This document shows, piece by piece, positions 8,183 through 63,987 of a stretch of 64,000 nucleotides of DNA. The notes below the pieces were generated by a model. That model was not told the DNA's origin. It made no database searches and worked only from the letters and a program-made list of their open reading frames with translations. The stretch spans positions 992,001 through 1,056,000 of the forward strand of contig OZ037838.1 of the NCBI GenBank assembly GCA_964035575.1, read 5' to 3'. Position 1 is the stretch's first letter. Each line of letters starts with the position of its first letter. A program made the translations under genes and the position numbers. The DNA is from Rhynchopus sp. YZ270_cl-10. Taxonomy: Eukaryota.

Positions 8183-8531
8183 TGTGTGACCAGGGGAGGA
8201 GAGGGAGGTGGTGATGAATATGACCCAGGGTACCAACAAAATAACCCAAGACCCTCAAAGCACCCCCAAGAAACTCCCCGTTTAGCTCTGTTGCTGTTTT
8301 CTCTTGTTTGCCTTCCACAGGTTGCCCACCTCACACGCTGCCCATGCGGCGGTCTCGTGGGTGACAGATCGCGATGCTTAGTGTCATTTTCCATTCGTCA
8401 CCTCTCACAACGAGAACCACCACAAACATGCAACACAGAACAACACCTCTCCCCACCCACCTCATCACTCCCTCCGTTTGTGGTGGAGCAAACGTGCTGA
8501 TTTGCACCTTCTCACGAAGCAACGCAACACA

Positions 8532-12074: not shown

Positions 12075-12130
12075 CGTTGCGAAGTGACACCACCAACCAT
12101 CACATCAAACACAACAGACCCCTTAACAAT

Positions 12131-13234
12131 ATGATGGATGTGACCTTTGTGCTGGAAGAGTCAGGCGTGACTGCGACAGTGGAGGTGCCGTGCGAGGCGG
12201 ACGTTGCAGCGGCAAAGGAGGTTGCGTGCACGGCGCTTGCTGTCTCGCCTGCGTCTGTCGAGATGCGCATCGGCACGCAGGTGCTGGAGGGGACGTGCCG
12301 TCTGCAGGACACTGCGTTTGATGCAGGGGTGCAGGTTGTGCTTGCCCGCCGCTTTGCCGACATCAAGTGTCCTGCTGAGCACATCCAGCGCAAGTTGCAC
12401 AACTTCTCGCTGTCTCGTTGTGGAACGCTTTGTCTCTCTTTCCACAAGACTGGCGCTGCACGTATTGCCTGCGTAGGCTTTGACACAGAAACCTTCGACA
12501 CTGCCTTCACGTTTGACATAGAATGTGCTGGCTTCGGCTCGGGACCTGCCATCTCACGGTGCAAGACACGCTGCTACCTGGCGTGCGGCAAGAGGGAAGG
12601 CCTTCTTGAGGTTGCGCTTCCAGGTGGGGAGGTGCTCCGCAAAGTCGACGGCATCTCGAAGTCAGTGTTCGCGTGTGGCAATGTTGTTGTCTCGAAGGGC
12701 AAAGACGGCGTCTCTGTGTTTGATGAAGACCTGACGTTGCTCCGCTCTCTCTCGCAGGAAGCGTGCCTGGATGCGGCAGTGTCGGACTGTGGTGGGTGGG
12801 TGATCACCTCCTCTGAAATCGATAGCAACGCACGTCTGTGGGATGTGAACACAGGTGAAGCTGTGGCATGTGTGCCTGCGGGTTCGTGGTGTGCAGTGGC
12901 GCTTTCACGGTCTGCCTCTGTCTTTGCAGCGGGGGCAAACAACACCGTGCAGCTCTATGATTGGAGTGGTGAAGCTCTTCGCAGTGTTGCTGTAGGGGGC
13001 TTCGGGGAGATGCAGTTCACACCGTGTGGGAAGTACCTTGTGATACAAAGACATTGCAAAATATCTGTTGATGACTGGCACTTCGAGCTACACCAGTATG
13101 ATGTGACTAACATGTCCTGTGTGCGTGTGATACCAGAACCTTGCAATGCGTTTACGATATCACCGTGTTCACGTGTGGTTATGTTTGGGTCAGGAGAAAG
13201 TGCCCTTAGGACGAGGCATCTCTACCCCTACTGA
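12131..13234 (+). CDS. Ubl + beta-propeller protein, copy 7 (367 aa)
   Basis: Same architecture; last copy of array 1. Confidence 0.85.
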   Translation: MMDVTFVLEESGVTATVEVPCEADVAAAKEVACTALAVSPASVEMRIGTQVLEGTCRLQDTAFDAGVQVVLARRFADIKCPAEHIQRKLHNFSLSRCGTLCLSFHKTGAARIACVGFDTETFDTAFTFDIECAGFGSGPAISRCKTRCYLACGKREGLLEVALPGGEVLRKVDGISKSVFACGNVVVSKGKDGVSVFDEDLTLLRSLSQEACLDAAVSDCGGWVITSSEIDSNARLWDVNTGEAVACVPAGSWCAVALSRSASVFAAGANNTVQLYDWSGEALRSVAVGGFGEMQFTPCGKYLVIQRHCKISVDDWHFELHQYDVTNMSCVRVIPEPCNAFTISPCSRVVMFGSGESALRTRHLYPY

Positions 13235-25716: not shown

Positions 25717-25720
25717 GTAC

Positions 25721-34109: not shown

Positions 34110-34370
34110 TATTGCTTGTCAAATGCGTATTTCGATGAAGGTGGGTGTGGGGACGGTCGAGGGGAGGGGGGGGAAAAAAAAACGACAGGTGGAGATTTGC
34201 ACAACTGTGGCAACACAACCGAGGCAACTACACTACTCCAACAATTTATCAAAAAAAGGTTGTCGGATTGTCAAAACGTTTTTTTTTGAGACGTGAAATG
34301 CATGGTGGTTTTTGTCCGATATTTGTTGCTGCTTTTCTTTTGTACAATGTGTGCGCGCGAGAAGGAACAG

Positions 34371-47853: not shown

Positions 47854-48948
47854 ATGATGGATGTGACCTTTGTGCTGGAAGAGTCAGGCGTGACTGCGAC
47901 AGTGGAGGTGCCGTGCGAGGCGGACGTTGCAGCGGCAAAGGAGGTTGCGTGCACGGCGCTTGCTGTCTCGCCTGCGTCTGTCGAGATGCGCATCGGCACG
48001 CAGGTGCTGGAGGGGACGTGCCGTCTGCAGGACACTGCGTTTGATTCAGGGGTGCAGGTTGTGCTTGCCTGTCCTCGCTTTGCCGACATCAAGTGTCCTG
48101 CTGAGTACACTGCAACGCATGTGGGACCCTTGTCGCTGTCGCGTTGTGGAACGCTCTGCGTCTATTGTAGCCTCGATGGGCGTGTTGGTGGCTTCGACAC
48201 AGAAACCTTCAACACTTGCTGCTCTTTTGAAGTGGACGGTGACGTGCGCGGTCGGCCTGCCATCTCGCAGTGCAAGACACGCTGCTACCTGGCGTGTGGG
48301 GGTGATGTACGCATGGTTGCGCTTCCGGGTGGGGAGGTGCTTCGCAAAGTCTACGGCACCTCAGACTCAGTGTTCGCGTGTGGCAATGTTGTTGTCTCAA
48401 AGAGTGGAGACGGCGTCTCTGTGTATGACGAAGACCTGACGTTGCTTCGCACTCTCTCGCACGAAGGGTGCTGGGACATGGCTGTGTCGGACTGTGGTGG
48501 GTGGGTGATCACCTCCTCCGAAAACGAGAGCAACGCACGTCTGTGGGATGTGAACACAGGTGAAGCTGTGGCATGTGTGCCTACGAGTGGGTGGTGTATG
48601 GCGCTTTCACGGTCTGCCTCTGTCTTTGCTGTGGGGGTGGAAAACACGGTGCGCCTCTTTGATTGGAGTGGTGCGGCTCTTCGCAGTGTTGATATGTATG
48701 GGGATGGAAGGGGTATGCAGTTCACCCCGTGTGGGAAGTACCTTGTGGTCAGGGAAGTCGGGGATGATGATGGTGCTTACTATGCACAACTGCACCAGTT
48801 TGATGTGGCGACCATGTCCTGTGTGCGTGTGATACCGCAAAACTCAGGTGTGTCCTTTGCGATATCGCCGTGTTCACGTGTGGTTGTGGTTTTGCAATCA
48901 GATGGCGTCATTGCGACAAAGCATCTGTACCCACACAACAGTGAGTGA
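47854..48948 (+). CDS. Ubl + beta-propeller protein, copy 8 (364 aa)
   Basis: Same architecture; first copy of array 2. Confidence 0.85.
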   Translation: MMDVTFVLEESGVTATVEVPCEADVAAAKEVACTALAVSPASVEMRIGTQVLEGTCRLQDTAFDSGVQVVLACPRFADIKCPAEYTATHVGPLSLSRCGTLCVYCSLDGRVGGFDTETFNTCCSFEVDGDVRGRPAISQCKTRCYLACGGDVRMVALPGGEVLRKVYGTSDSVFACGNVVVSKSGDGVSVYDEDLTLLRTLSHEGCWDMAVSDCGGWVITSSENESNARLWDVNTGEAVACVPTSGWCMALSRSASVFAVGVENTVRLFDWSGAALRSVDMYGDGRGMQFTPCGKYLVVREVGDDDGAYYAQLHQFDVATMSCVRVIPQNSGVSFAISPCSRVVVVLQSDGVIATKHLYPHNSE

Positions 48949-49303
48949 TATGTGACCAGGGGTGGGGAGAGGAGGGGAGGCTGGTGATGAATATAACTCA
49001 GGGTACCAGCAAGAAAACCCAAGACCCTCAAAACACCCCCAAGAAACTCCCCTTTCAGCCCTGTTGCTGCTTTTCTCTTTGCCTCACAGGTCGCCCACCT
49101 CACACGTTGCCCATGCGATGCTCTCGTGTGCGTGACAGATCGCGATGCCGAGTATCATTTTCCTTTCGTCACCTCTCACAACGAGAACCACCACAAACAT
49201 GCAACACAGAACAACACCTCTCCCCCACCCACCTCATCACTCCCTCCGTTTGTGGTGGAGCAAACGTGCTGATTTGCACCTTCTCACGAAGCAACGCAAA
49301 ACA

Positions 49304-50425
49304 ATGATGGATGTGACCTTTGTGCTGGAAGAGTCAGGCGTGACTGCGACAGTGGAGGTGCCGTGCGAGGCGAACGTTGCAGCGGCAAAGGAGGTTGCGT
49401 GCACGGCGCTTGCTGTCTCGCCTGCGTCTGTCGAGATGCGCATCGGTACGCAGGTGCTGGAGGGGACGTGCCGTCTGCAGGACACTGCGTTTGAGGCAGG
49501 GGTGCAGGTTGTGCTTGCCCGCCCTCGCTTTGCCGACATCAAGTGTCCTGCTGAGTACAGTGCAGAGGCGCCAACTGGTTGGGAGTGGACGTCGCTAAAT
49601 CACGTATTGCTATCTCCTTGTGGAGCACTCTGCCTTTTTACACAGAGGGCAGTCTATGTCACCGGCCTCGATACAGAAACCTTCAGCACTGCCTTCAAGT
49701 TCAAAGTAGACATTGAGATGTGCGATAAGCCTGCCATCTCACGGTGCAAGACACGCTGCTACCTGGCGTGCAGGGAAGAAGGTATGCACGAGGTTGCGCT
49801 TCCGGGTGGGGAGGTGCTCCGCAAAGTCGACGACCCCTCGTACGCAGTGTTCGCGTGTGGCGGTGTTGTTGTCTCCCAAGGCAAAGACGGCGTCTCTGTG
49901 TATGACGAAGACCTGACGTTGCTCCGCTCTCTCTCGCACAAGGTGTGCCGCAAATCAGAAGTGTCGGACTGTGGTGGGTGGGTGATCACCTCCTCCATCT
50001 TGCAGAAGGACGCACGTCTGTGGGATGTGAACACAGGTGAAGCTGTTGCATGTGTGCCTGCGGATGGGAGGCACGTGGCGCTTTCAAGGTCTGCCTCTAT
50101 CTTTGCTGTGGTGTGCTCTGACAAAGTGAAGCTCTATGACTGGAGTGGTGCGGCTCTGGGCAGTTTTGAAAAGGAGCAGTCTCGCGTCGATGCCGTGCAG
50201 TTCACTCCATGTGGGGAGTACGTCGTAGTTGGCTTTAGAGAGAGTGGGAAAATATATTGTGAAGAGTACACTCTGCACCAGTATGATGTGGCGACCATGT
50301 CCTGTGTGCGCACGTTCTCTGGCGTCGCACTCTTGACATTTACGATATCGCCGTGTTCGCGTGTGGTACTGTTTACGACCTCGGGTCGAGAGACCATTGA
50401 GACGAGACATCTGTACCCCTACTGA
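49304..50425 (+). CDS. Ubl + beta-propeller protein, copy 9 (373 aa)
   Basis: Same architecture; intact ORF. Confidence 0.85.
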   Translation: MMDVTFVLEESGVTATVEVPCEANVAAAKEVACTALAVSPASVEMRIGTQVLEGTCRLQDTAFEAGVQVVLARPRFADIKCPAEYSAEAPTGWEWTSLNHVLLSPCGALCLFTQRAVYVTGLDTETFSTAFKFKVDIEMCDKPAISRCKTRCYLACREEGMHEVALPGGEVLRKVDDPSYAVFACGGVVVSQGKDGVSVYDEDLTLLRSLSHKVCRKSEVSDCGGWVITSSILQKDARLWDVNTGEAVACVPADGRHVALSRSASIFAVVCSDKVKLYDWSGAALGSFEKEQSRVDAVQFTPCGEYVVVGFRESGKIYCEEYTLHQYDVATMSCVRTFSGVALLTFTISPCSRVVLFTTSGRETIETRHLYPY

Positions 50426-51623
50426 GTGATGTTTTGCGAGAGGTTGTGTTTGTGCAGCTTCTCGCAGGCGGTCCACAATACACAAAAAGCGTTGTTGTTG
50501 TATATTTTTTTGCATTGGTATCGTTTCTTGTTGACTCTTTCGCGACCTGCATCCAAGCATGTGATCAACTTCACTTTGTTTGTTTTCATTATTCATGAGG
50601 ATCCAGTGAACCTTTTGACCCTACTCTCTGCCTGGGCAGTCCTAGCGGCGGTGTTTGCTTGGTTGCACTTGCGCAAAATATGGTCCCAGTGTACCATTGG
50701 TAAGCAATGTTATTTCAATGATGATACAGGTGAGTGACGACACCTCCCCTTTTGCCAGTTGGAAAGGTGTGCACGTTAGGCAATTTCCAGCATAATAGCA
50801 ACAGTGGCTTAATCTCTTTACATCACGGAGGGTCTTGCACTGACGATGTCCCCTCTGTTACAACCAATGTATGCAGTTAGGACTGAAACATGATGTACTG
50901 AAATTTTTGCCAACTACTTTATTTTCTTCACGTGACCCCTTTTAACCCACCCCCTTACCCTGAAACTTTGAAGATGCAACTTTTGTGTACAAAACAGCAC
51001 TTTTGAATGCAAATCAACAAATAAAAGCTACTTTCTAGGGTTGAGGATGGCCTCCGTCCATACCGATTAAGTACAAAGCCTTAGGGTGACATTGTGTACA
51101 GATCCTACCTCGGTAGGTGATTGTCGATACAACAAAAAAAGGTTTGCTTGTGTGTGTGTGTTTGATAACAGATTTAGAGTGGGTAACGCCTAAACGTAGT
51201 GGCCCACTTGTTTGTGTGTTCTGACATAGTGTCACTTACGGTGCCGAAAAATCGGCAGGGACCTAAAGCTCGGTCGTGCATGCCAAAGGGAAAAACCCGT
51301 GTTGGTGGGTCCCGCGTTAAAGAACAAAGACTCCAGGTCTCATGGGCGTTTGCTTCTAAGAGTGTGTGTGTTGTTCTGCTCTTGTGGGTTGCCGTTAAAC
51401 AGAAACACAAGCCTACCGACGAGCGGTTGTGTCTTCCCGTTCACACAACAGTACGGGCAGGTCATGAGGTTTCTTTTCACGTCTCCTGTGTGTTTGCAGG
51501 GTATCTTCAAATTGCTTGCTTTGTCAGAGTTTGTTGAAACACGTATTCAACCCACCAACCTTCTTATTTGTCGTTGCGAAGTAACCCCACCAACCATCAC
51601 AACACAACAGACCCCTTAACAAT

Positions 51624-52715
51624 ATGATGGATGTGACCTTTGTGCTGGAAGAGTCAGGCGTGACTGCGACAGTGGAGGTGCCGTGCGAGGCGGACGTTGC
51701 AGCGGCAAAGGAGGTTGCGTGCACGGCGCTTGCTGTCTCGCCTGCGTCTGTCGAGATACGCATCGGCACGCAGGTGCTGGAGGGGACGTGCCGTCTGCAG
51801 GACACTGCGTTTCGTGCAGGGGTGCAGGTTGTGCTTGCTCGCCGATTTGCCGACATCAAGTGTCCTGCTGAGTACAACGTACAGGAAGGAGTGAAGCACT
51901 TGTCGCTGTCGCGTTGTGGAACGCTCTGTCTCTCTTGTGATAAAAATCATACTATTAGTGGCTTCGACACAGAAACCTTCGACACTACCTTCGCTTTTAG
52001 TGTAAGTCAGCTTCGTTTCTGCGCTTCCCCTGCTATCTCGCAGTGCAAGACACGCTGCTACCTGGCGTGTGGGGAGGACTTTCGTGTGCTTGCGCTTCCG
52101 GGTGGGGAGGTGCTCCGCAAAGTCGACGGCCCTTCGTATGCAGTGTTCGCGTGTGGCGGTGTTGTTGTCTCCCGAGGCACAGACGGCGTCTCTGTGTATG
52201 ACGAAGACCTGACGTTGCTCCGCTCTCTCTCGCATGAAAGGTGCAGCGAGGTGGCAGTGTCGGACTGTGGTGGGCGGGTGATCACCTCTTCCGACAAGGA
52301 GAAGAACGCACGTCTGTGGGATGTGAACACAGGTGAAGCTGTGGCATGTGTGCCCGTGGCAGGGGGCAATGTGGCGCTTTCACGGTCTGCCTCTGTCTTT
52401 GCTGTAGAGGGCTCTGACAAAGTGCACCTCTATGATTGGAGTGGTGCGGCTATGGGCAGCTTTGCCCAGGACTCAGGCACTTACTTCTGCGGCATGCAGT
52501 TCACCCCGTGTGGGAAGTACCTTGTGATTAACAGTCTGGATGTACAGTGCGGTGCCTGGTCCCTGCTTCAGTATGATTTGTCGAGCATGTCCTGCGTACG
52601 TGAGATACCGAACACCAAAGGTTCGCCCTTTACGATATCGCCATGTTCGCGTGTGGTTGTGTTTGAAAACCAGTCTGGCAACACTATACTAACAAGACAC
52701 CTGCACCCCTACTAG
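51624..52715 (+). CDS. Ubl + beta-propeller protein, copy 10 (363 aa)
   Basis: Same architecture; intact ORF. Confidence 0.85.
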   Translation: MMDVTFVLEESGVTATVEVPCEADVAAAKEVACTALAVSPASVEIRIGTQVLEGTCRLQDTAFRAGVQVVLARRFADIKCPAEYNVQEGVKHLSLSRCGTLCLSCDKNHTISGFDTETFDTTFAFSVSQLRFCASPAISQCKTRCYLACGEDFRVLALPGGEVLRKVDGPSYAVFACGGVVVSRGTDGVSVYDEDLTLLRSLSHERCSEVAVSDCGGRVITSSDKEKNARLWDVNTGEAVACVPVAGGNVALSRSASVFAVEGSDKVHLYDWSGAAMGSFAQDSGTYFCGMQFTPCGKYLVINSLDVQCGAWSLLQYDLSSMSCVREIPNTKGSPFTISPCSRVVVFENQSGNTILTRHLHPY

Positions 52716-53299
52716 GGTCTGAGGTGCGTCCCTCTTTCTTGCCTAATAGCTTCTTCATTTGCGCAAAGGCGAAATGTCAAAGATGAAACATCATCAAGGA
52801 GCTTTCTTCCCCTAAACACCCTGGTTTTGTCGTGCGATTAATGTTAAGTTTCTATTTTGCTTACTTTTCCATGAGGATCCCATCCGTTAAACGGAAACAC
52901 AACCCGCTGACGAGTGGTTGTGGACCTTCCCCCTTCACACCACAGTAAGGGCAGGCCATGAGGTTTCTTTTCTTCAATGCGCTGTGCTTGTGTGCACAGC
53001 AGTGTACATACCCTTGCAAGCTTTCTTAGAAGATGACCACCAGCCTTTGTGCAATGTCCCGCTCTGAGGTAGTGCACAACTGCTGTTCATACACGACACA
53101 CAGGACTTTCCACCCCACACCAAGATGTTTACCTTCGGTTGCTGTCTGACGTCTCATGAGGACCAGAGTAAAGTGGACAGAGATACACTCCTCTCCATTG
53201 ATCGAGACAACATGATCAGCAGGGGCAGTCGGCACAAAGTCAGCGCAACCACCATGTCATCCACCATCTACACCTTCCACGAGGAGCCTCTTGGCACGG

Positions 53300-54511
53300 A
53301 TGGGTGCACAGCCGCTCTTGGTGAGGCGCTTTCGTTGCCTCTGCGCACCACAGAGGGCACAGCAGGCACATGCTTCGTCGCATACGACCCAGCAAAGTGC
53401 TTTGAGCCGAGGCACACTGGAGGTTGCCAAGCGTGTCATGGAGGCGGGCTTTGCAAAGAACGTCAGGTTTTCGATGGCGGCGTTCCTACTCGAAGACAGC
53501 AGTGCAGTAGACGTGTTCTCCAATAAGCCTATGGAGCTGCCGAAGGTGGTCAACGGTGCGCTTGAAGGCGCCACTACGAAGGAGGTGGCGACGTGGGCCG
53601 CAGCAGCGAGGTTGATTGACGATGTGCACAAGATGCCAAGGAGCGAAGACACATCGACGTGCATTCACTTTATGAAGGGAAACGACCGTGCGTCTTCCTT
53701 CTATGTTGTGGCCATACCGACTGGAGAGAAGGGTGACGCGTTTGCAACCTGTATCACAATGGCTGCGAAGAAGAAGAAGAAACCGACTCCCTTCAAAAGG
53801 TCGCTTCTGACACAGATGCTGGCAGAGGTGTTTGTCAGTGGCAGCACTGCGATGTGCACGTTCCTGCCGCCCACCATAGACAAGGCGGAACCCGTCATCA
53901 GTTATGCTGAGAGCTGCGGCGCTATGGAATATGCACATCCATTCGGCATAAACGTGTATGAAGACGGCAAGCATTCCGAGGTGCGAGTCTTCCTGAATCA
54001 TATGCCCAGGGACGATCTTGGGTGTTTACGCAGCAAGGTTGCTTTGAAGTGTGGACTGCCGGAGGGGCGAGTCCGGTTGGAACATAGCACAACGCACAAA
54101 TGCCTGACTGATCCCAACAAGGAGGCCCCTTTTTTCACACCACCTCATAATATTGTGTTGTACGCTAACATACGTGTGCTGCCGGTGCTGCAGCAGGGGT
54201 GGTGGGTTGAGGTGTTGGAGGATGCGGGGGAGGGCCCATCTGTCCGTGCCGCACAGATCACGGATGTGGACGGTGACTACGTGGTGTCGGTCGAGAAGGC
54301 GTCGCATGGCTTCAAACCAGAGGAGCTGTGCATAGCACCGATCAACACACACAAGGCAAGACCGGATCTGCCCTTCTCCTTCCATCGCAGCGACGGCCAG
54401 ACAGGCCTGGGGCTCGAGCAGTACCTCACGGAGAACGGGCACGTGGCAGCACCGATCGGCTGCTTCGTGTCGGACACTGCAGAGGACTTCTTCCCGACAC
54501 CCACGCCGTAG
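53300..54511 (+). CDS. Hypothetical protein inside array 2, with possible internal Ubl-like and Tudor/SH3-like domains; start uncertain
   Basis: ~400-codon ORF with coding-like composition. An upstream ATG at 53254 in another frame suggests a possible frameshifted 5' end. Confidence 0.55.
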   Translation: MGAQPLLVRRFRCLCAPQRAQQAHASSHTTQQSALSRGTLEVAKRVMEAGFAKNVRFSMAAFLLEDSSAVDVFSNKPMELPKVVNGALEGATTKEVATWAAAARLIDDVHKMPRSEDTSTCIHFMKGNDRASSFYVVAIPTGEKGDAFATCITMAAKKKKKPTPFKRSLLTQMLAEVFVSGSTAMCTFLPPTIDKAEPVISYAESCGAMEYAHPFGINVYEDGKHSEVRVFLNHMPRDDLGCLRSKVALKCGLPEGRVRLEHSTTHKCLTDPNKEAPFFTPPHNIVLYANIRVLPVLQQGWWVEVLEDAGEGPSVRAAQITDVDGDYVVSVEKASHGFKPEELCIAPINTHKARPDLPFSFHRSDGQTGLGLEQYLTENGHVAAPIGCFVSDTAEDFFPTPTP

Positions 54512-55399
54512 TGCGGGAGCGACGGTGCTGAGATGTGTGTGCTGCCTTCGCATGCGGGTTTGGCATTCGGTATGTGGGTGCGCTGCTGCTCCACACGGCA
54601 GAGTTCTTCTGTGTCCACTGTCGCAGCTGTGTGGTGCCACCTTGCTTCCGCATCGGTTGCGCGCACTGATGTGGCTGCCATCAAGCAACCCTCACGACGA
54701 ACGACACATGTCATAACATGACAAGCACATGTTATAAGCACAATAACAAACACAAAACGTTATCACATAACTGCTTGGGTTCGGTAGGGGAGCAGGTTGC
54801 TATTAGGTCCTGTTCCAAAATTTATTCTTGATAAGACGTGTGCATTTCTAAGTAAATTTTTCAGTAACCACGAGTCGTTCTTTTCCCTCCCGTGCTCCCC
54901 ATCTCACTCACACACCAGGAAAATTGTCAAAAAAAAATCGTTCATTATTGTGAGCAGCGTTTGGTGATAAAAAAGTGTACCTGAGTGTGGGGATGCGTTC
55001 AAGAGTTAAACACTTCCCCCCGAACCCCCTTTCGTCTTTTTTCTTTATCCAAACGGCAAGTGGATGCGTAATGTTCATTTTGCATAATGTTAAATTAAAC
55101 AATACAGCATACGATACACGCCCCCATAAAAAGTCTCGAGAAAACACATTTTTTTTGACAACCGCACTCGGCTGTGCCCTTTTTTCTTTCAGGTATATTA
55201 GGGCAATGTGACAGAGGTCGGACAAGTTGGAACTCGCACTGTTCTGTGCTTGAGATCCCATCCTTCACTGATCCGTGTTGGAGACCGTACACAGCACTCC
55301 CTCCCTCGTTCTTTGCCAATCACAGAGACGAACTCACTCCACGAGTTGCGAAGTGACCCCACCAACCATCACATCAAACACAACAGACCCCTTAACAAT

Positions 55400-56602
55400 A
55401 TGATGGATGTGACCTTTGTGCTGGAAGAGTCAGGCGTGACTGCGACAGTGGAGGTGCCGTGCGAGGCGAACGTTGCAGCGGCAAAGGAGGTTGCGTGCAC
55501 GGCGCTTACTGTCTCGCCTGCGTCTGTCGAGATGCGCATCGGCATGCAGGTGCTGGAGGGGACGTGCCGTCTGCAGGACACTGCGTTTGATGCAGGGGTG
55601 CAGGTTGTGCTTGCCTGTCCTCGCTTGGCCGACATCAAGTGTCCTGCTGAGTACACTGCAGAGCCGCAAGCGACGTCGTTGACGCTGTCACGTTGTGGAA
55701 CGCTTTGTGTCCACAGTAACGAGAGTGGGCATGTTGGCGGCTTCGACACAGAAACCTTCGACACTGTCTTCAAGTTCAAAGTGGACAATGAAGTGTTCGG
55801 TCCACCTGCCATCTCGCAGTGCAAGACACGCTGCTACCTGGCATGCAAGGATTGCCTTCTCGAGTTAGCGCTTCCGGGTGGGGAGGTGCTCCGCAAAGTC
55901 GACGGCCCCTCCGTTTCAATACGGACCTGTGGCAGTGTTGTTGTCTCGAAGGGCAAAGACGGCGTCTCTGTGTATGACGAAGACCTGACGTTGCTCCGCT
56001 CTCTCTCGCACGAAGAGTGCAGGGACCTGGCACTGTCGGACTGTGGTGGGTGGGTGATGACCTCCATCACCTGCTCCTCCGAAGAGGACAACGCACGTCT
56101 GTGGGATGTGAACACAGGTGAAGCTGTGGCATGTGTGCCTGCGGAGGGGTGGTGGTGTATAGTGGCGCTTTCACGGTCTGCCTCTGTCTTTGCTGTGGGG
56201 AGCGATAGCAGTGTACGCCTCTATGATTGGAGTGGTGCGGCTCTTCTCAGTGTTGATATAGATGGGGATGTCCAGCGCATGCAGTTCACACCATGTGGGA
56301 AGTACCTTGTGGCAAAGGTAGAGGTATATATGGCTGATGAGGACACCGATGATACTGATGGCAGCAGCATTTACTCCGATTTCAAGTCATACCTGCACCA
56401 GTATGATGTGGCGACCATGTCCTGTGTGCGTGTTATGTCGCAAACCGAGCATGCGGAATTTGCGATATCGCCGTGTTCACGTGTTGTTGTGGTTATGCAA
56501 TCAGACGGCGTCATTGTGACACAGCATCTGTACCCATACTCTGGTGAGCAGTGTGTCAGTAGAGAGGAGGGAAGCGGTGGGGAGGGAGGGGAGGGGGAGT
56601 GA
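55400..56602 (+). CDS. Ubl + beta-propeller protein, copy 11 (400 aa; extended C-terminus)
   Basis: Same architecture; the family stop is replaced, giving the tail QCVSREEGSGGEGGEGE. Confidence 0.85.
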   Translation: MMDVTFVLEESGVTATVEVPCEANVAAAKEVACTALTVSPASVEMRIGMQVLEGTCRLQDTAFDAGVQVVLACPRLADIKCPAEYTAEPQATSLTLSRCGTLCVHSNESGHVGGFDTETFDTVFKFKVDNEVFGPPAISQCKTRCYLACKDCLLELALPGGEVLRKVDGPSVSIRTCGSVVVSKGKDGVSVYDEDLTLLRSLSHEECRDLALSDCGGWVMTSITCSSEEDNARLWDVNTGEAVACVPAEGWWCIVALSRSASVFAVGSDSSVRLYDWSGAALLSVDIDGDVQRMQFTPCGKYLVAKVEVYMADEDTDDTDGSSIYSDFKSYLHQYDVATMSCVRVMSQTEHAEFAISPCSRVVVVMQSDGVIVTQHLYPYSGEQCVSREEGSGGEGGEGE

Positions 56603-56929
56603 TGATGAATATAACTCAGGGTACCAGCAAGAAAACCAAAGACCCTCAAAACACCCCCAAGAAACCCCCCTTTCAGCCCTGTTGCTGCTTTTCTCTTCTT
56701 TGCCTGCCACAGGTCGCCCACCTCACACACCTCACTCCTGTGTGTTTGCCAGGGTATCTTCAAACTTTCCTTACTCTTGCAGTGTGTCCTTACTGGACGG
56801 TTTGGGTATCTTCAAATTGCTTGCTTTGTCAGAGTTTGTTGAAACACGTATTTAACCCACCAACCTTCTTATTTGTCGTTGCGAAGTGACAACAACCATC
56901 ACATCAAACACAACAGACCCTTTAACAAT

Positions 56930-58024
56930 ATGATGGATGTGACCTTTGTGCTGGAAGAGTCAGGCGTGACTGCGACAGTGGAGGTGCCGTGCGAGGCGAA
57001 CGTTGCAGCGGCAAAGGAGGTTGCGTGCACGGCGCTTGCTGTCTCGCCTGCGTCTGTCGAGATGCGCATCGGCACGCAGGTGCTGGAGGGGACGTGCCGT
57101 CTGCAGGACACTGCGTTTGGTGCAGGGGTGCAGGTTGTGCTTGCCCGCCGCTTTGCCGACATCAAGTGTCCTGCTGAGTACGATGCCCGTGTAGAAGGAT
57201 TGTCGCTGTCGCGTTGTGGAACGCTCTGCATCTTCACAAAAAGTGGTTTCCAGGGGCGTGTTGGTGCCTTCGACACAGAAACCTTCACCACTGCCTTCGA
57301 CTCCACACTATCCTACATAGCGTTATACCCCCCTGCCATATCGCAGTGCAAGACACGCTGCTACCTGGCAAGCGAGCAAGGCCTGCGACAGGTTGCGCTT
57401 CCGGGTTGTGAGATGATCCGCAAAGTCGACGGCTCCTCGCACTCAGTGTTCGCGTGTGGCAATGTTGTTGTCTCACGGGACAGAAGCGGTGTCTCTGTGT
57501 ATGACGAAGACCTGACGTTGCTCCGCTCTCTCACACATGAAGGGTGCCGCAATGCAGCAGTGTCGGACTGTGGTGGGTGGGTGATCACCGCCTCCGAAAT
57601 CGATAGCAACGCACGTCTGTGGGATGTGAACACAGGTGAAGCTGTGGCATGTGTGCCTGCGCCAATGTGCGCTGTCGCACTTTCACGGTCTGCCTCTGTC
57701 TTTGCTGTAGCGGACTCTGGCAACGTGCACCTCTTTGATTGGAGCGGTGCGGCTCTTCGCAGTGTTGATATGGATGCACCTGTTGGGGCTATGCAGTTCA
57801 CACCGTGTGGGAAGTACCTTGTGATACTAAGACATTGCACGGGACCTGGGTTTGATTGGAACTACGACCTTCACCAGTATGATGTGGCGAACACGTCCTG
57901 TGTGCGTGTGATTAAGAATATCAGTGGTTCATCGTTTGCGATATCCCCATGTTCACGTGTGGTTGTGTTTGGCCAAGGCTCGTCCATTGTAACAAGGCAT
58001 CTCTACCCATACAACAGTGAGTGA
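56930..58024 (+). CDS. Ubl + beta-propeller protein, copy 12 (364 aa)
   Basis: Same architecture; intact ORF. Confidence 0.85.
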   Translation: MMDVTFVLEESGVTATVEVPCEANVAAAKEVACTALAVSPASVEMRIGTQVLEGTCRLQDTAFGAGVQVVLARRFADIKCPAEYDARVEGLSLSRCGTLCIFTKSGFQGRVGAFDTETFTTAFDSTLSYIALYPPAISQCKTRCYLASEQGLRQVALPGCEMIRKVDGSSHSVFACGNVVVSRDRSGVSVYDEDLTLLRSLTHEGCRNAAVSDCGGWVITASEIDSNARLWDVNTGEAVACVPAPMCAVALSRSASVFAVADSGNVHLFDWSGAALRSVDMDAPVGAMQFTPCGKYLVILRHCTGPGFDWNYDLHQYDVANTSCVRVIKNISGSSFAISPCSRVVVFGQGSSIVTRHLYPYNSE

Positions 58025-58440
58025 GACTTTGCTTTGCAAAGACCCCTTTGCTTTGCAGCTTTGCCCTGTGGTGCGGCTTTGATGGGAGGGAATGGGTGTT
58101 GCGTTTGCTTCTTGTTGGACGTAGTTAAAAAAAAAAGAAGCAAGCACATTTTTTTCTTCGTATTCGTGTTTGTCACGTCATCATGTGGAAAAGAAAACCG
58201 ACTACAATAGGTTGTGGGAATTAGCAGGTTAGGAATTACTACCTGACAAGCAACCTAGGGTGTCATACTTCAGCTGTCAAGCATTTTTCTGTTTTTTCTT
58301 CTTCTCTTTTGTTGCGTGGGTCTGGTTTTTCACTAAAAAAGCTGCAACGGGAGCAATGTGGCTCGGGTCGACGTATTTTATCTCTAATTTTTTACCTATG
58401 TAACCCCTGTGTGTTATTTTAAATTTGTGTGTTATGTCAC

Positions 58441-58686
58441 CAATGCGTCATCGGGAGCAGGGCGACTCGTGGTCGACTGCGAGAGATTTGTTGATAGTGT
58501 GCGCGCTCAGCCGACACGCAATCTCTGTTTGGACCGTGCGCATGGTTTAGCGTATTATTGTCCTGCTTTTAGCTTTGTAGCTTTTCCTGCTTGTGTTTTG
58601 TCGCCAATGTGTCATCGGGAGCAGTGCGACTCGGGTCGACTGCGAGAGGTTGTTGATAGTGTGCGGGCACAGCCGACACGCAACCT
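58441..58686. repeat. ~85-bp imperfect direct repeat, 2 copies (~165-bp period)
   Basis: caatg.gtcatcgggagcag.gcgactcg.gtcgactgcgagag..tgttgatagtgtgcg.gc.cagccgacacgcaa at 58441 and ~58606. Confidence 0.75.
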
Positions 58687-59291
58687 GATGTGCTTCAAAC
58701 ATGCAGATGCTACTTTCTTGTTTCTTCCGTGGGGGTGATTTCTCTCTTTGAGCTATTATTGACTTAGCGTTATTTGTCTTTATTGTTGTTTAAAAAGTCC
58801 CATTTCCTGGTCGCGATAGTTCGCGAACGTTCCTGCAGTCAACGCAGGGAAAGCATAATCAACGATGTGATACAGGATATGGGTGGTTCAGTGATTCCAC
58901 AGAACCGACACCATTGATGTGTCTCAACCAAAACCAAATAATTTAAAAAGAGAGAGTTGAAGTAAGGAAAGAAAATGAAGATGTGCGTGCACGAGAGTCA
59001 TATTCAGCCCCAAGTTTTCTTTGCTTTCTTTTCCATGAGTATAATCCGTTAAACCAAAACACAAACCGGCCTTCGAGCGGTTGTGTGGATACCTTCCCCC
59101 TTCACACCACCGTACGGGCAAGCCATGAGGTTTCTTTTCACATATCCTGTGTGTTTGCCGCAGGGTATCTTCAAATTGCTTACTTTTTCAGAGTTTGTTG
59201 AAACACGTATTCAACCCACCAACCTTCTTATTTGTCGTTGCGAAGTGACCCCACCAACCATCACATCAAACACAACAGACCCCTTAACAAT

Positions 59292-60401
59292 ATGATGGAT
59301 GTGACCTTTGTGCTGGAAGAGTCAGGTGTGACTGCGACAGTGGAGGTGCCGTGCGAGGCGGACGTTGCAGCGGCAAAGGAGGTTGCGTGCACGGCGCTTG
59401 CTGTCTCGCCTGCGTCTGTCGAGATGCGCATCGGCACGCAGGTGCTGGAGGGGACGTGCCGTCTGCAGGACACTGCGTTTGATGCAGGGGTGCAGGTTGT
59501 GCTTGCCCGCCCTCGCTTTGCTGACATCAAGTGTCCTGCTGAGTACAGTCTAGAGGTGCCAACTGGTGGACAGCAAATGAATGTGATTCGTTTATCCCTG
59601 TCTCCTTGTGGAGCACTCTGCCTCTTTACACAGAAGCAAGGCTATATCACCGGCCTCGATACAGACACCTTCAGCACTGCCTTCAAGTTCAAAGTAGACA
59701 TTGATGTGTACGGTGTGCCTGCCATCTCACGGTGCAAGACACGCTGCTACCTGGCGTGCAAGGAAGGCGTACACGAGGTTGCGCTTCCGGGTGGGGAGGT
59801 GGTCCGTAAAGTCGACGGCACCTCATACACAGTGTACGCGCGTGGTGGTGTTGTTGTCTCCTGTGGTGAACAAGGAAGCGTCTCTGTGTATGACGAAGAC
59901 CTGACGTTGCTCCGCACTCTCTCACACGAAGGGTACAGCGAGGCAGTGGTGTCGCACTGTGGTGGGTGGGTGCTCACCTCCTCCAATACTGAGAAGGACG
60001 CACGTGTGTGGGATGTGAACACAGGTGAAGCTGTTGTATGTGTGCCTGCGGATGGGAGGCACGTGGCGCTTTCACGGTCTGCCTCTGTCTTTGCTGCGGT
60101 GTGCTCTAATGAAGTGCAGCTCTATGACTGGAGTGGTGCGGCTCTTGGCAGCTTTGATAAACCGGGGTATCTCTTTGTCTGTTCCATGCAGTTCACTCAG
60201 TGTGGGAAGTACCTGCTACTTGAGTTGGTGCACGCTCAACAATATTTACTGCAACAGTATGATGTGGCGACCATGTCCTGTGTGCGTGAATTTTCAGACT
60301 TCGCTGTGTTTTCATTAAAGATATCGCCGTGTTCACGTGTGATACTATTTGCGAATTCGGCACGTGACACCATTGTGACGAGACATCTGTACCCCTACTG
60401 A
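59292..60401 (+). CDS. Ubl + beta-propeller protein, copy 13 (369 aa)
   Basis: Same architecture; intact ORF. Confidence 0.85.
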   Translation: MMDVTFVLEESGVTATVEVPCEADVAAAKEVACTALAVSPASVEMRIGTQVLEGTCRLQDTAFDAGVQVVLARPRFADIKCPAEYSLEVPTGGQQMNVIRLSLSPCGALCLFTQKQGYITGLDTDTFSTAFKFKVDIDVYGVPAISRCKTRCYLACKEGVHEVALPGGEVVRKVDGTSYTVYARGGVVVSCGEQGSVSVYDEDLTLLRTLSHEGYSEAVVSHCGGWVLTSSNTEKDARVWDVNTGEAVVCVPADGRHVALSRSASVFAAVCSNEVQLYDWSGAALGSFDKPGYLFVCSMQFTQCGKYLLLELVHAQQYLLQQYDVATMSCVREFSDFAVFSLKISPCSRVILFANSARDTIVTRHLYPY

Positions 60402-60910
60402 GTGATGTTTTGCGAGAGGTTGTGTTTGTGCAGCTTCTCGCAGGCAGTCCACCCCAGAAGAACCTATCCCCCCAAAAGAGTCCCCATTTTGGCATAGAAT
60501 TCTCACATACCTTCCCGCGGTGGTTCAAACCCCCCACCACCAAACCTCCATCACCCATTTCTGCCATGCTCGCCGTGGCCAGAATCTAGTAATTATAACG
60601 GATGTTTTGTTTGTTTCTCCCTTTTGTTCGAACACTGTATTTCATCTGCATTCCGTAACCACACACCACTTCGAGTCAGAGACGCCTGCAAGGTGCTTGC
60701 CTGGTCTGTTGGTCGGGAGGGTCAGGGAACAGAGGTGTGTCTGGGTTGCTTTGTTGGCGTCTATCGGAGGCTTCCATATCAATGTGAGCACAGTGTTGCC
60801 TTCCCATTCTTTGAATGTCGTTGACCTGAACACTCGAGTTGCGAAGTCATACAATACATCACATCAAACACAATATTCAATTGCATTCCACCAACACAGC
60901 TCTTGAAACA

Positions 60911-62020
60911 ATGATGGATGTGACCTTTGTGCTGGAAGAGTCAGGCGTGACTGCGACAGTGGAGGTGCCGTGCGAGGCGGACGTTGCAGCGGCAAAGGAG
61001 GTTGCGTGCACGGCGCTTGCTGTCTCGCCTGCGTCTGTCGAGATGCGCATCGGCACGCAGGTGCTGGAGGGGACGTGCCGTCTGCAGGACACTGCGTTTG
61101 ATTCAGGGGTGCAGGTTGTGCTTGCCTGTCCTCGCTTTGCCGACATCAAGTGTCCTGCTGAGTACAGTGCACAGGGGACAGTGTACGACTTGTTGCTGTC
61201 GCGTTGTGGAGCACTCTGCCTCTATAGGAATCGTACGTCTGTTCATGGCTTCCATACAGAAACCTTCGAGACTGCCTTCGCCATTGATGTGCATTGTGCG
61301 TCCAGCGCACCTGCCATCTCACGGTGCAAGACACTCTGCTACGTGCCGTGTAGGTATTACTTTCTCAAGATTGCGCTTCCGGGTGGGGAGGTGCTCCGCA
61401 GAGTCCACGTCGCCTCAGAATCAGTGTTCGCGAGTGGCAATGTTGTTGTCTCCCAAGGGGATGACGGCATCTCTGTGTATGACGAAGACCTGACGTTGCT
61501 CCGCTCTCTCTCGCACGAAGGGTGTAATGGTGTGGCAGTGTCGGACTGTGGTGGGTGGGTGATCACCTCCTCCTACAGTAGCAAGAACGCACGTCTGTGG
61601 GATGTGAACACAGGAGAAGCTGTGGCATGTGTGCCATCGGATGGGTATTCCGCGGCACTTTCACGGTGTGCCTCTGTCTTTGCTGTGGTGGACAATGATC
61701 AGGCACGCAGAGTGCAGCTCTACGACTGGAGTGGTGCGGCTCTTCAAAACGCCACTATCTCTGGATGTTTCTGTGACCTGCAATTCACCCTCTGTGGGAA
61801 GTACCTCGTGGCCTATGTAAAGCGTACTGACGATGGAGCATTACGCGCAGAGTTGCACCAGTATGAGGTGGCGACTATGTCCCGTGTACTTGTGATCCCA
61901 GACGTTTCTGCCACCTATGATGAATCATTTGCGATATCACCATGTTCGCGTGTGGTCGTGTTTGTATCATCCAACAACACCACCATTGCGACAAAATATC
62001 TGTACCCCTACTGCGAGTGA
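60911..62020 (+). CDS. Ubl + beta-propeller protein, copy 14 (369 aa)
   Basis: Same architecture; intact ORF. Confidence 0.85.
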   Translation: MMDVTFVLEESGVTATVEVPCEADVAAAKEVACTALAVSPASVEMRIGTQVLEGTCRLQDTAFDSGVQVVLACPRFADIKCPAEYSAQGTVYDLLLSRCGALCLYRNRTSVHGFHTETFETAFAIDVHCASSAPAISRCKTLCYVPCRYYFLKIALPGGEVLRRVHVASESVFASGNVVVSQGDDGISVYDEDLTLLRSLSHEGCNGVAVSDCGGWVITSSYSSKNARLWDVNTGEAVACVPSDGYSAALSRCASVFAVVDNDQARRVQLYDWSGAALQNATISGCFCDLQFTLCGKYLVAYVKRTDDGALRAELHQYEVATMSRVLVIPDVSATYDESFAISPCSRVVVFVSSNNTTIATKYLYPYCE

Positions 62021-62850
62021 TGTTTATGCTTTGCCACCATGTGAAATGGGTGTGGTGACTTGCCCCCTTGTATTCCGTGGAGGCGGAAGAACTGGTGTCA
62101 ACAGAAGCCTGCGTCTTGCCACCACACACCTATCCCGTGATGGCAGATCTGCATCCACGAGCAAGACACCGCAGACCACCTTGTCGCAGCCGAACACCAC
62201 ATCGCCTCCCGCCAGGCCGCCCTCGTCACCCTCCACACAGAGATGTGCGCCATGGTGAGACCTATTCATATGCTCACTGCTGTTCATTTTTGTTGAACAA
62301 GATAAAACAAAAAGCTTGCGTTTCTTTTATCGAACAGATTTTATTCTCCGCCCCGTACCCAAAACATAAACACCACTGTGAATCAGAAAAAATATTTTCC
62401 CTTTTCTTTTTTCTTCCACACACGCTTGTTTTTGTGCTTCGTTCATTTTTTATTAAAAAAGCTTTTGTTGCTTTCCTTGTGAACTATGCCTGCGGTCTAT
62501 ACGTTGCACCATGCCTCTTGTTTCCCCCCTTTCCCCCCTTGTTTCGAGTGCGAAACGTTTCTCCATGTATTGCACGGGAAACAACATGACAAACAGGTGC
62601 AGGGTGGTTCCGTGCTTACCATAGAACCTGGCACCTTGTGTGTCTCCCAAAAACCAAAAAAGCGTTGTGTGTGAAGTTTTGAAGGAAGGAAAAATATAAC
62701 CTGTACCCCAGAACTTCTACCCCAACCCAAAACAACGACCCCCATCCCTCGTCCCCTCTTTCCACGTGTCCACCCTCTCAGCTCCTTCAACTGTCCACCC
62801 AACAGAACATTAAATTGCATCACACCAACACAGCTCTTGAAATAACGACC

Positions 62851-63987
62851 ATGGATGTGACCTTTGTGCTGGAAGAGTCAGGCGTGACTGCGACAGTGGA
62901 GGTGCCGTGCGAGGCGGACGTTGCAGCGGCAAAGGAGGTTGCGTGCACGGCGCTTGCTGTCTCGCCTGCGTCTGTCGAGATGCGCATCGGCACGCAGGTG
63001 CTGGAGGGGACGTGCCGTCTGCAGGACACTGCGTTTGATGCAGGGGTGCAGGTTGTGCTTGCTCGCCCTCGCTTTGCCGACATCAAGTGTCCTGCTGAGT
63101 ACAGTCTAGAAATGCCAGATTTAAAGTATCAAGCGAATATAGTTCACGTATTGCTGTCTCCTTGTGGAGCACTCTGCCTCTTTACACAGAAGCAAGGCTA
63201 TATCACCGGCCTCGATACAGAAACCTTCAGCCCTGCCTTCAAGTTCAAAGTAGACTTTGAAGTGTACGGTGTGCCTGCCATCTCACGGTGCAAGACACGC
63301 TGCTACCTGCCGTGCAAGGAAGGCGTACACGAGGTTGCGCTTCCGGGTGGGGAGGTGCTCCGCAAAGTTGACGGACCCTCCTCCGCAGTGTTTGCGTGTG
63401 GCGGTGTTGTTATCTCGTTTGAAGGCGACATTGGCGTCTCTGTGTATGACGAAGACCTGACATTGCTCCGCTCTCTCTCGCACAAAGGCTGTGAGGGAGC
63501 GGCAGTGTCGGACTGTGGTGGATGGGTGATCACCTCCTCCGATTCCGAGTCCGACAACGATGGCACCGCTCGTCTGTGGGATGTGAACACAGGTGAAGCT
63601 GTGGCATGTGTGCCTGCGGAGGGGTTATGCCAAGTGGCTCTTTCACGGTCTGCCTCTGTCTTTGCTGTGGAGGGGGAGGAAAACACCGTGCAGCTCTATG
63701 ATTGGAGTGGTGCGGCTCTTCGCAGCGTTGATGTGGGTGGGGATATTGAGAGCATGCAGTTCTCCCCGTGTGGGAAGTACCTTGTGGTCAATATCTCGAA
63801 CATGATGTCTGATTTTTGTTGGGACTTCGACCTTCACCAGTATGATGTGGCGACCATGTCCTGTGTGCGTGTGATTAAGAATGCAAGCAGTTCATCGTTT
63901 GCGATATCCCCATGTTCACGTGTGGTTGTGTTTGGCGAAGGCTCCTCCATTTTCACCAGACATCTGTACCCACACAACAGTGAGTGA
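62851..63987 (+). CDS. Ubl + beta-propeller protein, copy 15 (378 aa)
   Basis: Same architecture; the array probably continues beyond the window. Confidence 0.85.
   Translation: MDVTFVLEESGVTATVEVPCEADVAAAKEVACTALAVSPASVEMRIGTQVLEGTCRLQDTAFDAGVQVVLARPRFADIKCPAEYSLEMPDLKYQANIVHVLLSPCGALCLFTQKQGYITGLDTETFSPAFKFKVDFEVYGVPAISRCKTRCYLPCKEGVHEVALPGGEVLRKVDGPSSAVFACGGVVISFEGDIGVSVYDEDLTLLRSLSHKGCEGAAVSDCGGWVITSSDSESDNDGTARLWDVNTGEAVACVPAEGLCQVALSRSASVFAVEGEENTVQLYDWSGAALRSVDVGGDIESMQFSPCGKYLVVNISNMMSDFCWDFDLHQYDVATMSCVRVIKNASSSSFAISPCSRVVVFGEGSSIFTRHLYPHNSE

Follow-up and report, generated by a model that had tools for sequence, protein, structure and literature searches.

This locus raises the question of whether the clustered paralogues of a likely marine diplonemid, Rhynchopus sp. 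YZ270_cl-10, are patchworks of one another and, if so, in what units they exchange DNA and what the exchange may serve. The window, meaning the whole 64,000-nucleotide stretch analyzed (contig OZ037838.1, positions 992,001 to 1,056,000), holds 15 intronless gene copies encoding a UBL domain and a 7-blade WD40 propeller, 14 of them with intact frames (Table 1). The copies lie in two arrays, copies 1-7 at 984-13234 and copies 8-15 at 47857-63987; seven of the 15 fall outside 47854..63987, the region from which the original prediction was drawn.

Family architecture and genomic setting

The C-terminal part is predicted to form a seven-bladed WD40 propeller of four-stranded blades with velcro closure (AlphaFold2 pLDDT mostly 70-95). 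Foldseek matches the propeller to G-beta and PkwA (E about 1e-15), and the Pfam WD40 score on the family is below the curated cut-off. The N-terminal domain is modeled with a ubiquitin (beta-grasp) fold: the UBL model has a pLDDT of 81.5 and matches ubiquitin in Foldseek (TM 0.77, rmsd about 1.5), a UBL profile search matches polyubiquitin at positions 5-71, and Pfam ubiquitin is detected in 3 of 22 members (best 7e-5). An ESM Atlas search with the UBL returned a single uninformative match at 0.79. As a C-terminal di-glycine after the last UBL strand is absent in 15/15 copies, the UBL appears to be an integral domain and not a cleavable or conjugated modifier. Pfam gave no NACHT match in the four copies scanned, the protein being fully covered by UBL and propeller, and no F-box or BTB domain among the matches shown. 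Reading of the sequence and models made neither a signal peptide nor a GPI anchor evident; the protein opens with the UBL and stops just after strand 7c.

Beyond the window, at least 120 close relatives are present among the matches listed, 98 of them on the same 2.7-Mb contig. Protein relatives were taken as the best 120 of 420 matches; because these 120 were the ones examined, the tail of the 420 may include unrelated WD40 proteins. The DNA-level analysis covered the 15 window copies, with the remaining members compared as protein. The family-wide set of 122 proteins left out 10 proteins identical to window copies, P0005 (internal duplication), and P0091, P0098, P0105, P0114 and P0120, which are without the DVTF start; alignment A1 comprised copy 15 and 99 of the 120 listed matches. 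The family genes are located amid ordinary housekeeping genes. For a TatD gene near the array the best named match is with Diplonema papillatum (51%, 419 bits; outside the top six the next score is 305), which makes a diplonemid host likely. The ORF at 44541-45791 gave no hhalign match to the family (probability 1.7), and no homologue of the ORF at 40892-42151 was found except itself.

Table 1. Coordinates of gene copies, spacers and shared tracts in the window.
Feature	Position	Strand
Copy 1, UBL + 7-blade WD40 gene	984..2105	+
Spacer 1-2, 95% identical to spacer 3-4 though copies 2/4 are 77%	2106..2746	+
Copy 2: 5' flank 1/4-like; propeller and 3' flank 14-like; crossover probably in UBL	2747..3892	+
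Copy 3; tract common to copy 15 at 6066-6209 (133/144 nt)	5304..6461	+
Spacer 3-4	6462..7066	+
Copy 4	7067..8182	+
Spacer 4-5, 94% identical to spacer 8-9 of the other array	8183..8531	+
Copy 5, mosaic: blades 1-2 (about 8826-9038) 9/13-like; around 9348-9455 3/4-like	8532..9641	+
Copy 6, full-length frame, single in-frame TAG 11259-11261, likely pseudogene	10482..11603	+
Copy 7; 12770-12880 common to copy 12 (identical run 66 nt)	12134..13234	+
Copy 8	47857..48948	+
Spacer 8-9	48949..49306	+
Copy 9; overall sister of 13; 49793-49936 common to copy 10; 5' flank copy-5-like	49307..50425	+
Copy 10	51627..52715	+
Copy 11	55403..56602	+
Copy 12; 57869-58003 common to copy 15 (121/135 nt)	56933..58024	+
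Copy 13; 59589-59801 common to copy 15 (203/213 nt); 5' flank 3/7/10/12 type, propeller 9-like	59295..60401	+
Copy 14	60914..62020	+
Copy 15, clearest mosaic	62851..63987	+
Copy 15 UBL (residues 1-72), near-invariant among copies, silent sites included	62851..63066	+
Copy 15 tract 1, 13-like, residues 99-169, blades 1-2	63145..63357	+
Copy 15 tract 2, 3-like, residues 263-310, blade 5 into blade 6	63637..63780	+
Copy 15 tract 3, 12-like, residues 328-372, mid blade 6 through blade 7	63832..63966	+

Mosaic ancestry of the copies

The window copies have mosaic ancestry, as the original prediction had proposed from motifs shared between them. Every motif it quoted was found in the copies. The blade-1 variant common to copies 5, 9, 13 and 15 groups with UFBoot 99 and the C-terminus common to copies 12 and 15 with UFBoot 98; copies 13 and 15 both carry FTQKQGYITGLDT, and a blade-5 stretch is common to copies 3 and 15. 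Three further motifs are present but are not signs of shuffling or are not distinctive: that of copies 9 and 13 needs no shuffling because these copies are overall sisters (86%, UFBoot 100), and for those of copies 7 and 12 and of copies 4 and 9 other pairs are equally similar in the motif columns. Along its length copy 15 resembles first copy 13, then copy 3 and finally copy 12, with nucleotide identities of 90-95% and identical shared codons. The same three-part composition recurs in P0001, on another contig (456,684 b), which is 94% alike.

Several statistics place the pattern as a whole beyond chance. The PHI test gave p=0.0005 on 337 informative sites, and a GENECONV-like search for conversion tracts was globally significant in 14/105 pairs with mismatches allowed and in 5/105 without. 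Trees built per segment reject a single shared tree: the summed segment ΔlnL is 307.8, whereas 56 clonal simulations averaged 29.5 and peaked at 60.3, and seven of the eight segments exceeded every simulation. Plain AU tests, which reject the leave-one-out tree in 8/8 segments, were set aside as biased and therefore replaced by this parametric simulation test. In the triplet test nine of the 15 copies pass at the nucleotide level. Because the nucleotide simulations were too polymorphic (about 580 polymorphic sites versus 499 in the data) and without codon structure, the test was re-run on gap-free codons, where copies 5 and 15 (2/15) pass family-wise and one of 100 clonal simulations gave a higher maximum z (8.07 versus 7.84). 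Tracts have 90-95% nucleotide identity versus 71-81% across the remaining propeller, minority residues in common use the identical codon in 47/47 cases (from eight pair-tracts, which are not independent), and the longest identical run within the propeller is 68 nt. On silent sites only, neither PHI (23 sites) nor the tract search (45 sites) was significant. Differences between close protein pairs were significantly clustered in only 1/11, with p=0.076 for copy 15 versus P0001.

Probable exchange and its units

The layout of the locus supports exchange between paralogues, also across the two arrays, by segmental gene conversion or unequal crossover. Propeller identity is 0.738 within arrays and 0.739 between them, spacers 4-5 and 8-9 retain their 94% identity across about 40 kb, spacers 94-95% alike adjoin genes only 77-85% alike, and 5' flank types cross propeller clades. 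UBL variants and 5' flanks are unlinked from propellers: a linker indel, split 68:54 among the 122 proteins, takes 37 changes on the propeller tree versus 40.2 when shuffled, and its state differs in 5/11 close pairs. The control sites of the linker-indel test are circular because they helped to build the tree. UBL residues 1-62 are identical to those of copy 15 in 77/122 proteins (minimum 95%), and UBL DNA is identical over 186 nt in 21/105 copy pairs.

The blade, proposed as the unit of shuffling, is not that unit. Linkage between adjacent loops is 0.20 across a blade border versus 0.18 within a blade, and the tracts of copy 15 span two blades or stop mid-blade. Tracts ignore blade borders while blades never change position, exchange being position-matched. 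Nor is a combinatorial pool of loop cassettes supported: the 14 loop modules each have 95-121 distinct forms among 122 proteins, so that loops are mostly unique and no small pool exists. The placing of breakpoints in framework blocks is weakly favored, r2 being 0.042 with an intervening conserved block versus 0.084 without one (10-14 aa), a comparison confounded by region and breakpoint resolution. Family-wide (122 proteins), linkage of neighboring loops gave a lag-1 r of 0.18 versus 0.05 for clonal descent and had vanished by lag 3; framework length had no clear trend with linkage over 13 junctions, judged by eye, and a phase test aimed at patches the size of a loop gave a weak result (cis/trans 1.13).

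Silent divergence and the variable face

At silent sites the variable loops have diverged about 40 times as much as the UBL: dS is 0.92 in top loops and 0.18 in bottom loops, against 0.023 in the UBL. We here follow the convention of calling the side of the d-a and b-c loops the top face and the opposite side the bottom face. Variability is limited to the d-a and b-c loops and adjacent strand ends, i.e. to one face: all 59 hypervariable positions, defined on 105 non-window proteins, lie in d-a or b-c loops or strands a-c, and 0/59 in a-b or c-d loops. The top surface is described as the main interaction surface of WD40 propellers in a published account (PMC4383882).

Bottom loops have an omega of 0.32 and are without indels; top loops have an omega of 1.0-1.5 and many indels. 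The M2a omega of 4.5-5.0 was not accepted at face value, as the model assumes a uniform dS and that assumption is violated. With the loops' own dS scale the top-loop omega is 1.4-1.5 (p 0.013-0.002), on alignment-safe codons it is 1.0-1.15 (n.s.), and across codon sets and frequency models the top-face omega ranges over 1.0-1.6. Top-loop pN/pS is 0.95 overall and 0.44 within recent tracts, inside which silent changes number 8.5/40 in top loops versus 1/78 in bottom loops. Base-specific rates in the loops (A 0.21, C 0.17, G 0.26, T 0.22) give no particular spectrum. Selection on the loops may lie anywhere between relaxed and diversifying.

Proposed mechanism and alternatives

Taken together, it is likely that the UBL-WD40 family consists of DNA patchworks, probably made by position-matched conversion and unequal crossover, and that its members are diversified putative substrate adaptors for ubiquitin-type turnover. 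The starting points of exchange would be the UBL, near-identical over about 200 nt, and the frameworks of 40-60 nt, both of which the same exchange may keep uniform. Any copies, regardless of distance, would exchange tracts of roughly 50-300 nt or entire propellers. Loops would escape homogenization, changing by substitution and indel while selection on them is relaxed to diversifying, and their diversified versions on the putative top binding face would then be recombined by conversion. Diversity would thus accumulate across many generations and not be programmed. The variable face is a putative binder of targets such as viral or symbiont proteins, the constant UBL a putative docking module whose single shared partner might be, for example, the proteasome, p97 or a ligase, and the copies may serve as varied sensors for foreign or unwanted proteins. 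More tentatively, and with considerable doubt, the family might be an intracellular immune-like repertoire, built by a free-living marine protist, of hundreds of UBL-propeller receptors, whose constant tag and frameworks, near-identical at the DNA level, would act as recombination handles that reshuffle an antibody-like 14-loop face, and whose captured viral or symbiont proteins would go straight to the proteasome or p97.

An omega of about 1 on alignment-safe loop codons, the top-loop pN/pS of 0.95 and the one broken copy in 15 could also reflect neutral turnover, in which a tandem family recombines merely through its UBL and framework near-identity and unconstrained loops drift with no recognition role; any array of this kind should undergo ectopic conversion. 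We regard this as unlikely, as variability is strictly one-sided in both omega and indels, 14/15 frames are intact despite heavy loop indels, and at least 120 different copies are retained. It is very unlikely that the top loops are actively rewritten, possibly within a clonal lineage, by a mutation rate raised locally or by frequent templated patches of loop size. Such programmed diversification would suit the concentration of silent changes in top loops even in recent tracts, the runs of multi-base codon changes there and the near uniqueness of the loops; however, the tract edges were picked post hoc, the loop-patch test is weak, no reverse transcriptase or recombinase was matched in the 12 window ORFs scanned, and the loops have no base-specific spectrum and so are not adenine-directed as in diversity-generating retroelements (DGRs). 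A DGR itself was rejected for want of an A bias in the loops and of a reverse transcriptase match in those ORFs.

A recombination-free history on a single tree, in which amino-acid convergence and uneven rates would produce the pattern, is largely refuted and highly improbable. In its favor are the lack of significance in the silent-only tests, a star-like tree and loops close to saturation. Against it, no clonal simulation run with site-specific rates came near the observed ΔlnL, shared minority residues have identical codons (47/47), and the linker indel and non-coding flanks are unlinked. That the copies are assembly chimeras from reads of similar paralogues is barely credible. A short-read join could swap flanks in the UBL because of its near-identity, but the tracts are alike and not identical, with no identical propeller run beyond 68 nt, P0001 repeats the make-up of copy 15 on a separate contig, and the contig is 2.7 Mb long.

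Comparison with known repertoires

By analogy, the family is best read as resembling NLR-B30.2 or F-box repertoires, and neither HET nor VSG genes. The zebrafish NLR-B30.2 family (PMC4852459) likewise has hundreds of clustered genes, one domain homogenized by conversion (seen as low synonymous divergence), and recognition-domain variants spread and recombined by tracts shorter than the domain. Its members are animal NACHT-LRR-B30.2 receptors with exons (PMC4852459), whereas those here are single-exon UBL-WD40 genes of a unicellular protist, in which homogenized and variable parts alternate 14 times within one domain. Nematode and plant F-box and MATH-BTB adaptors (PMC8120010) are similar in forming large tandem families whose N-terminal module belongs to the ubiquitin system and is conserved, whereas the C-terminal domain binds substrates and is diversified; a defense role has been proposed for these families. 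The same pairing of a docking-type module with a diversified domain is found here (UBL minimum identity 95%, 59 hypervariable propeller sites). Unlike in F-box or BTB proteins, the N-terminal module has a modeled ubiquitin fold and is homogenized also at silent sites, which indicates conversion and not purifying selection alone.

The HET analogy of the original prediction fails on internal repeat identity. Podospora HET-E/HET-D (NWD) genes share with this family a WD40 propeller, exchange between genes and variable interaction-face residues in a conserved frame, but within one of those genes the repeats are 80-100% identical, their number varies, and exchange can join repeats from any two positions (PMC1805685, PMC13449251). 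Blades within one gene here are 10% alike (mean 0.10, maximum 0.21; best off-diagonal DNA match 21 nt, E 0.015), exchange is position-matched, extra blades, sought as a duplicated framework motif in a search limited by length, occur in 1/144 proteins, and no NACHT or HET domain was matched in the four copies scanned. The VSG analogy fails on the largely pseudogene archive, as 14/15 copies are intact. Trypanosoma brucei VSGs are surface coats, and a mostly pseudogene archive feeds a single expression site. Their Euglenozoan host group and the mosaics formed by segmental conversion between related genes are points of likeness; unlike them, the genes here begin directly with the UBL, are mostly intact and lie among housekeeping genes.

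The recombination mechanism itself is of an already known kind. Animals, plants, fungi and parasites all provide known examples of diversified recognition repertoires shaped by conversion; in the literature searched we found no description of one in diplonemids, and "WD40", "ubiquitin" and "gene conversion" have 0 occurrences in the main text of a diplonemid genome paper (PMC10161547). The abstract of that paper places diplonemids among the most abundant marine eukaryotes. The family offers a concrete handle on how diplonemid cells may recognize viruses or symbionts, a natural library of putative propeller binders on a fixed scaffold, and a clean natural case of conversion at an alternating 30-60 nt scale inside one domain.

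A propeller gene family in two arrays

One gene is present in 15 single-exon copies in the 64-kb window, all on the plus strand, and ordinary genes (TatD, an MFS transporter and a WD40 protein) separate the arrays of copies 1-7 and 8-15. DNA identity between copies is 76-86%. A single in-frame TAG interrupts copy 6, whose frame is otherwise intact up to 11603; beyond its remainder, tblastn of the window found no extra copies. From a 100-sequence alignment, AlphaFold2 predicts a seven-bladed propeller (residues about 82-371) that structurally matches G-beta and PkwA, with the register fixed by the LWD motif, which closes strand c. Residues 1-72, modelled with distant relatives, have a predicted ubiquitin fold (pLDDT 81.5; TM 0.77 to ubiquitin), and this ubiquitin-like domain (UBL) has no di-glycine.

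A protein search with copy 15 returned 420 matches. Among the 120 matches listed, all are at least 61% and all but one at least 67% identical to copy 15, and at least 98 are on one contig of 2,712,987 bases that also encodes the window's own proteins. Remoter full-length relatives of the same architecture sit on other long contigs. The UBL of the divergent relatives P0130, P0132-P0134, P0137, P0160, P0162, P0169, P0221, P0232 and P0271 has not been homogenised, its identity to copy 15 being 33-79%; those that were located are on other contigs, and they are likely copies that departed from the exchanging pool. For the window TatD, the best named relative belongs to Diplonema papillatum (51%, 419 bits), a match within the top six; the next match is far lower (305 bits). 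On the strength of this one gene, the host is likely a diplonemid of a different species.

Coordinates of features within the window
Feature	Position	Strand	Remark
First array	984-13234	+	Seven copies
In-frame TAG of copy 6	11259-11261
Direct duplication	11755-11894, 11936-12074		Two units, 96% alike, of the 5' flank element preceding copy 7
Second array	47857-63987	+	Eight copies
403-aa ORF	53300-54511		Unrelated, within second array; no credible Pfam match
416-aa ORF	44541-45791		Weak UBX-like N-terminal match and WD40 region
419-aa ORF	40892-42151		Coiled-coil-like; protein search returned only itself
8-mer array and palindromic repeats	25589-26039, 28311-28562		Perfect 40-copy array adjoining G/C-rich palindromes
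Dispersed 70-90 nt repeat	13819-13906, 30619-30695, 34172-34257, 40785-40862		89-94% alike
Second short repeat family	175-230, 18303-18369, 30108-30165, 40193-40245

The propellers are mosaics

The original prediction held that the copies are patchworks assembled by shuffling, and the motifs it quoted are all present. Across the 15 copies, PHI was significant on 337 informative sites (p=0.0005) and equally on 141 third positions; on 23 strictly silent sites it was not (p=0.18). In a GENECONV-like scan, global significance was reached by 14 of 105 pairs when mismatches were tolerated and by five when they were not; on 45 silent sites no pair reached it. Segment trees gave supported but conflicting groups: {5,9,13,15} in blade 1, {7,12} in blade 4, and {12,15} and {9,13} at the end. 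Because site permutation overlooks rate clustering, one-tree alignments were simulated using site rates and gaps taken from the data. Fitting each segment with its own tree raised the likelihood by 307.8 in sum, against a clonal mean of 29.5 and maximum of 60.3 in 56 simulations, all of which were exceeded by seven of the eight segments. In a triplet test nine copies passed at the nucleotide level (200 simulations) and only copies 5 and 15 at the codon level over 298 gap-safe columns, where 60 of 1422 triplets had z>4 (null mean 2.8, maximum 34; 100 simulations). Recombination as such is very likely, and the mosaicism is real.

Copy 15 is the clearest patchwork, resembling copy 13 at residues 99-169 (203/213 nt), copy 3 at 263-310 (133/144 nt) and copy 12 at 328-372 (121/135 nt), with 71-74% identity to these partners over the remaining propeller. 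The motif shared by copies 9 and 13 instead reflects their overall sisterhood, and those of 7/12 and 4/9 are plausible short tracts but no more alike than other pairs in those columns. Convergence as the source of shared tracts is ruled out, since all 47 minority residues common to tract pairs use the identical codon, which points to common descent. An assembly artefact is also unlikely, as the tracts are not identical and P0001, a family protein from a different contig (456,684 b), repeats the make-up of copy 15 at 94%. That contig also encodes P0022, a near-counterpart of copy 13 (88%); the two proteins could represent another haplotype or else a duplicated segment. Copy 15 and P0001 differ at 21 positions, ten of them within residues 108-163, where copy 15 matches copy 13 and P0001 matches copy 5 (7/10 each). 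The named donors are stand-ins, given that more than 100 other copies exist and that the best family-wide match is usually outside the window.

Unit and reach of exchange

The blade is not the exchange unit, contrary to the original prediction: among 122 proteins, neighbouring variable loops are as strongly correlated on either side of a blade border (0.20) as inside one blade (0.18). Nor is there a small combinatorial cassette pool, each loop module having 95-121 forms in the same set. Linkage between loops is stronger than in clonal simulations at lags 1-2 and is gone by lag 3. Two linked blocks run from blade 1 to early blade 2 and from late blade 5 to blade 7; the central loops are nearly free of linkage. 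A preference of breakpoints for frameworks is suggested, as r2 is about halved across a conserved block at equal distance, although frameworks lack markers and regions differ. Exchange is position-matched, since the blades of one gene are only 10% alike and have no DNA repeat in common. The exception among 144 proteins is P0005 (439 aa), with an exact in-register two-blade duplication whose halves are two different variants, likely from unequal crossover between two paralogues. Among window copies, propeller similarity is independent of array (0.738 vs 0.739) or distance (rho -0.02).

Homogenised UBL and variable face

Three points were missed by the original prediction, namely uneven silent divergence, the unlinking of UBL variants and 5' flanks from the propeller, and the confinement of hypervariable sites to one face. 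dS rises from 0.023 in the UBL through 0.18 for bottom loops (a-b and c-d) and 0.27-0.46 for strands to 0.92 for top loops (d-a and b-c), a range of about 40-fold in which the loop values are possibly inflated by misalignment. Silent uniformity results from repeated overwriting, not protein-level selection. UBL and linker variants are few and show no linkage to the propeller: a three-base indel whose two states divide the proteins 68:54 requires 37 changes on the propeller tree versus 40.2 with labels shuffled, three further UBL sites act likewise, and 5 of 11 pairs about 85-95% alike are discordant for the indel. The 5' flank types ({3,7,10,12,13}, {1,2,4}, {5,9}, {14,15}) cross-cut the propeller groups ({1,3,4,6,8,11}, {2,14}, {5,9,13,15}). 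Spacers 1-2 and 3-4 are 95% identical, and 4-5 and 8-9, from different arrays, 94%, while the adjoining genes are only 77-85% alike.

Family variation is one-sided. By WD40 convention, the d-a and b-c loops make up the top face. Among 105 non-window proteins, 59 positions are hypervariable: the d-a loops hold 19, the b-c loops 18 and strands a-c 22, and the a-b and c-d loops hold none. Indels are restricted to the same side. The top surface is the most active interaction surface of propellers, according to PMC4383882. M2a was favored over M1a (LR 187), assigning omega 4.5 to 16% of 221 codons and calling 27 sites, all outside bottom loops, a result that rests on assumed uniform dS. With dS scaled separately, omega in top loops is 1.37-1.51 (p=0.013, 0.002), or 1.01-1.15 (n.s.) over 21 alignment-safe codons, against 0.32 in bottom loops and 0.18 at conserved sites; top-loop pN/pS inside nine recent tracts is 0.44, from small counts. 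The variable face is at least unconstrained and likely under diversifying selection. The loops show no adenine bias such as a DGR would leave.

Probable mechanism and related systems

Ectopic homologous recombination probably initiates in the near-identical UBL and in framework runs of 40-60 nt; the longest identical propeller run per copy pair averages about 45 nt. Such recombination would hold the UBL and frameworks uniform and transfer either tracts or entire propellers among copies, with the loops continuing to diverge. The proteins may be substrate adaptors whose UBLs all dock on one partner and whose targets vary; that the putative targets are foreign seems rather unlikely.

The family works most like the zebrafish NLR-B30.2 genes, in which one domain is homogenised by conversion and the other recombined (PMC4852459). 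Its architecture is comparable to F-box adaptor expansions (PMC8120010). The HET and VSG parallels originally drawn were not borne out: the defining features of HET/NWD systems, as given in PMC1805685 and PMC13449251, fail here, as do those of VSG systems. A search of the openly accessible literature brought up no description of the family. The main text of the D. papillatum genome paper (PMC10161547) mentions neither WD40, ubiquitin nor gene conversion.

Other features of the window

The 416-aa ORF may be a remote representative of the UBL-WD40 architecture; hhalign of this ORF against the family gave no match. The palindromic repeats beside the 8-mer array reappear about 2.7 kb off in both orientations and are possibly mobile-element ends. 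The dispersed 70-90 nt repeat lies mostly a short distance upstream of ORFs.
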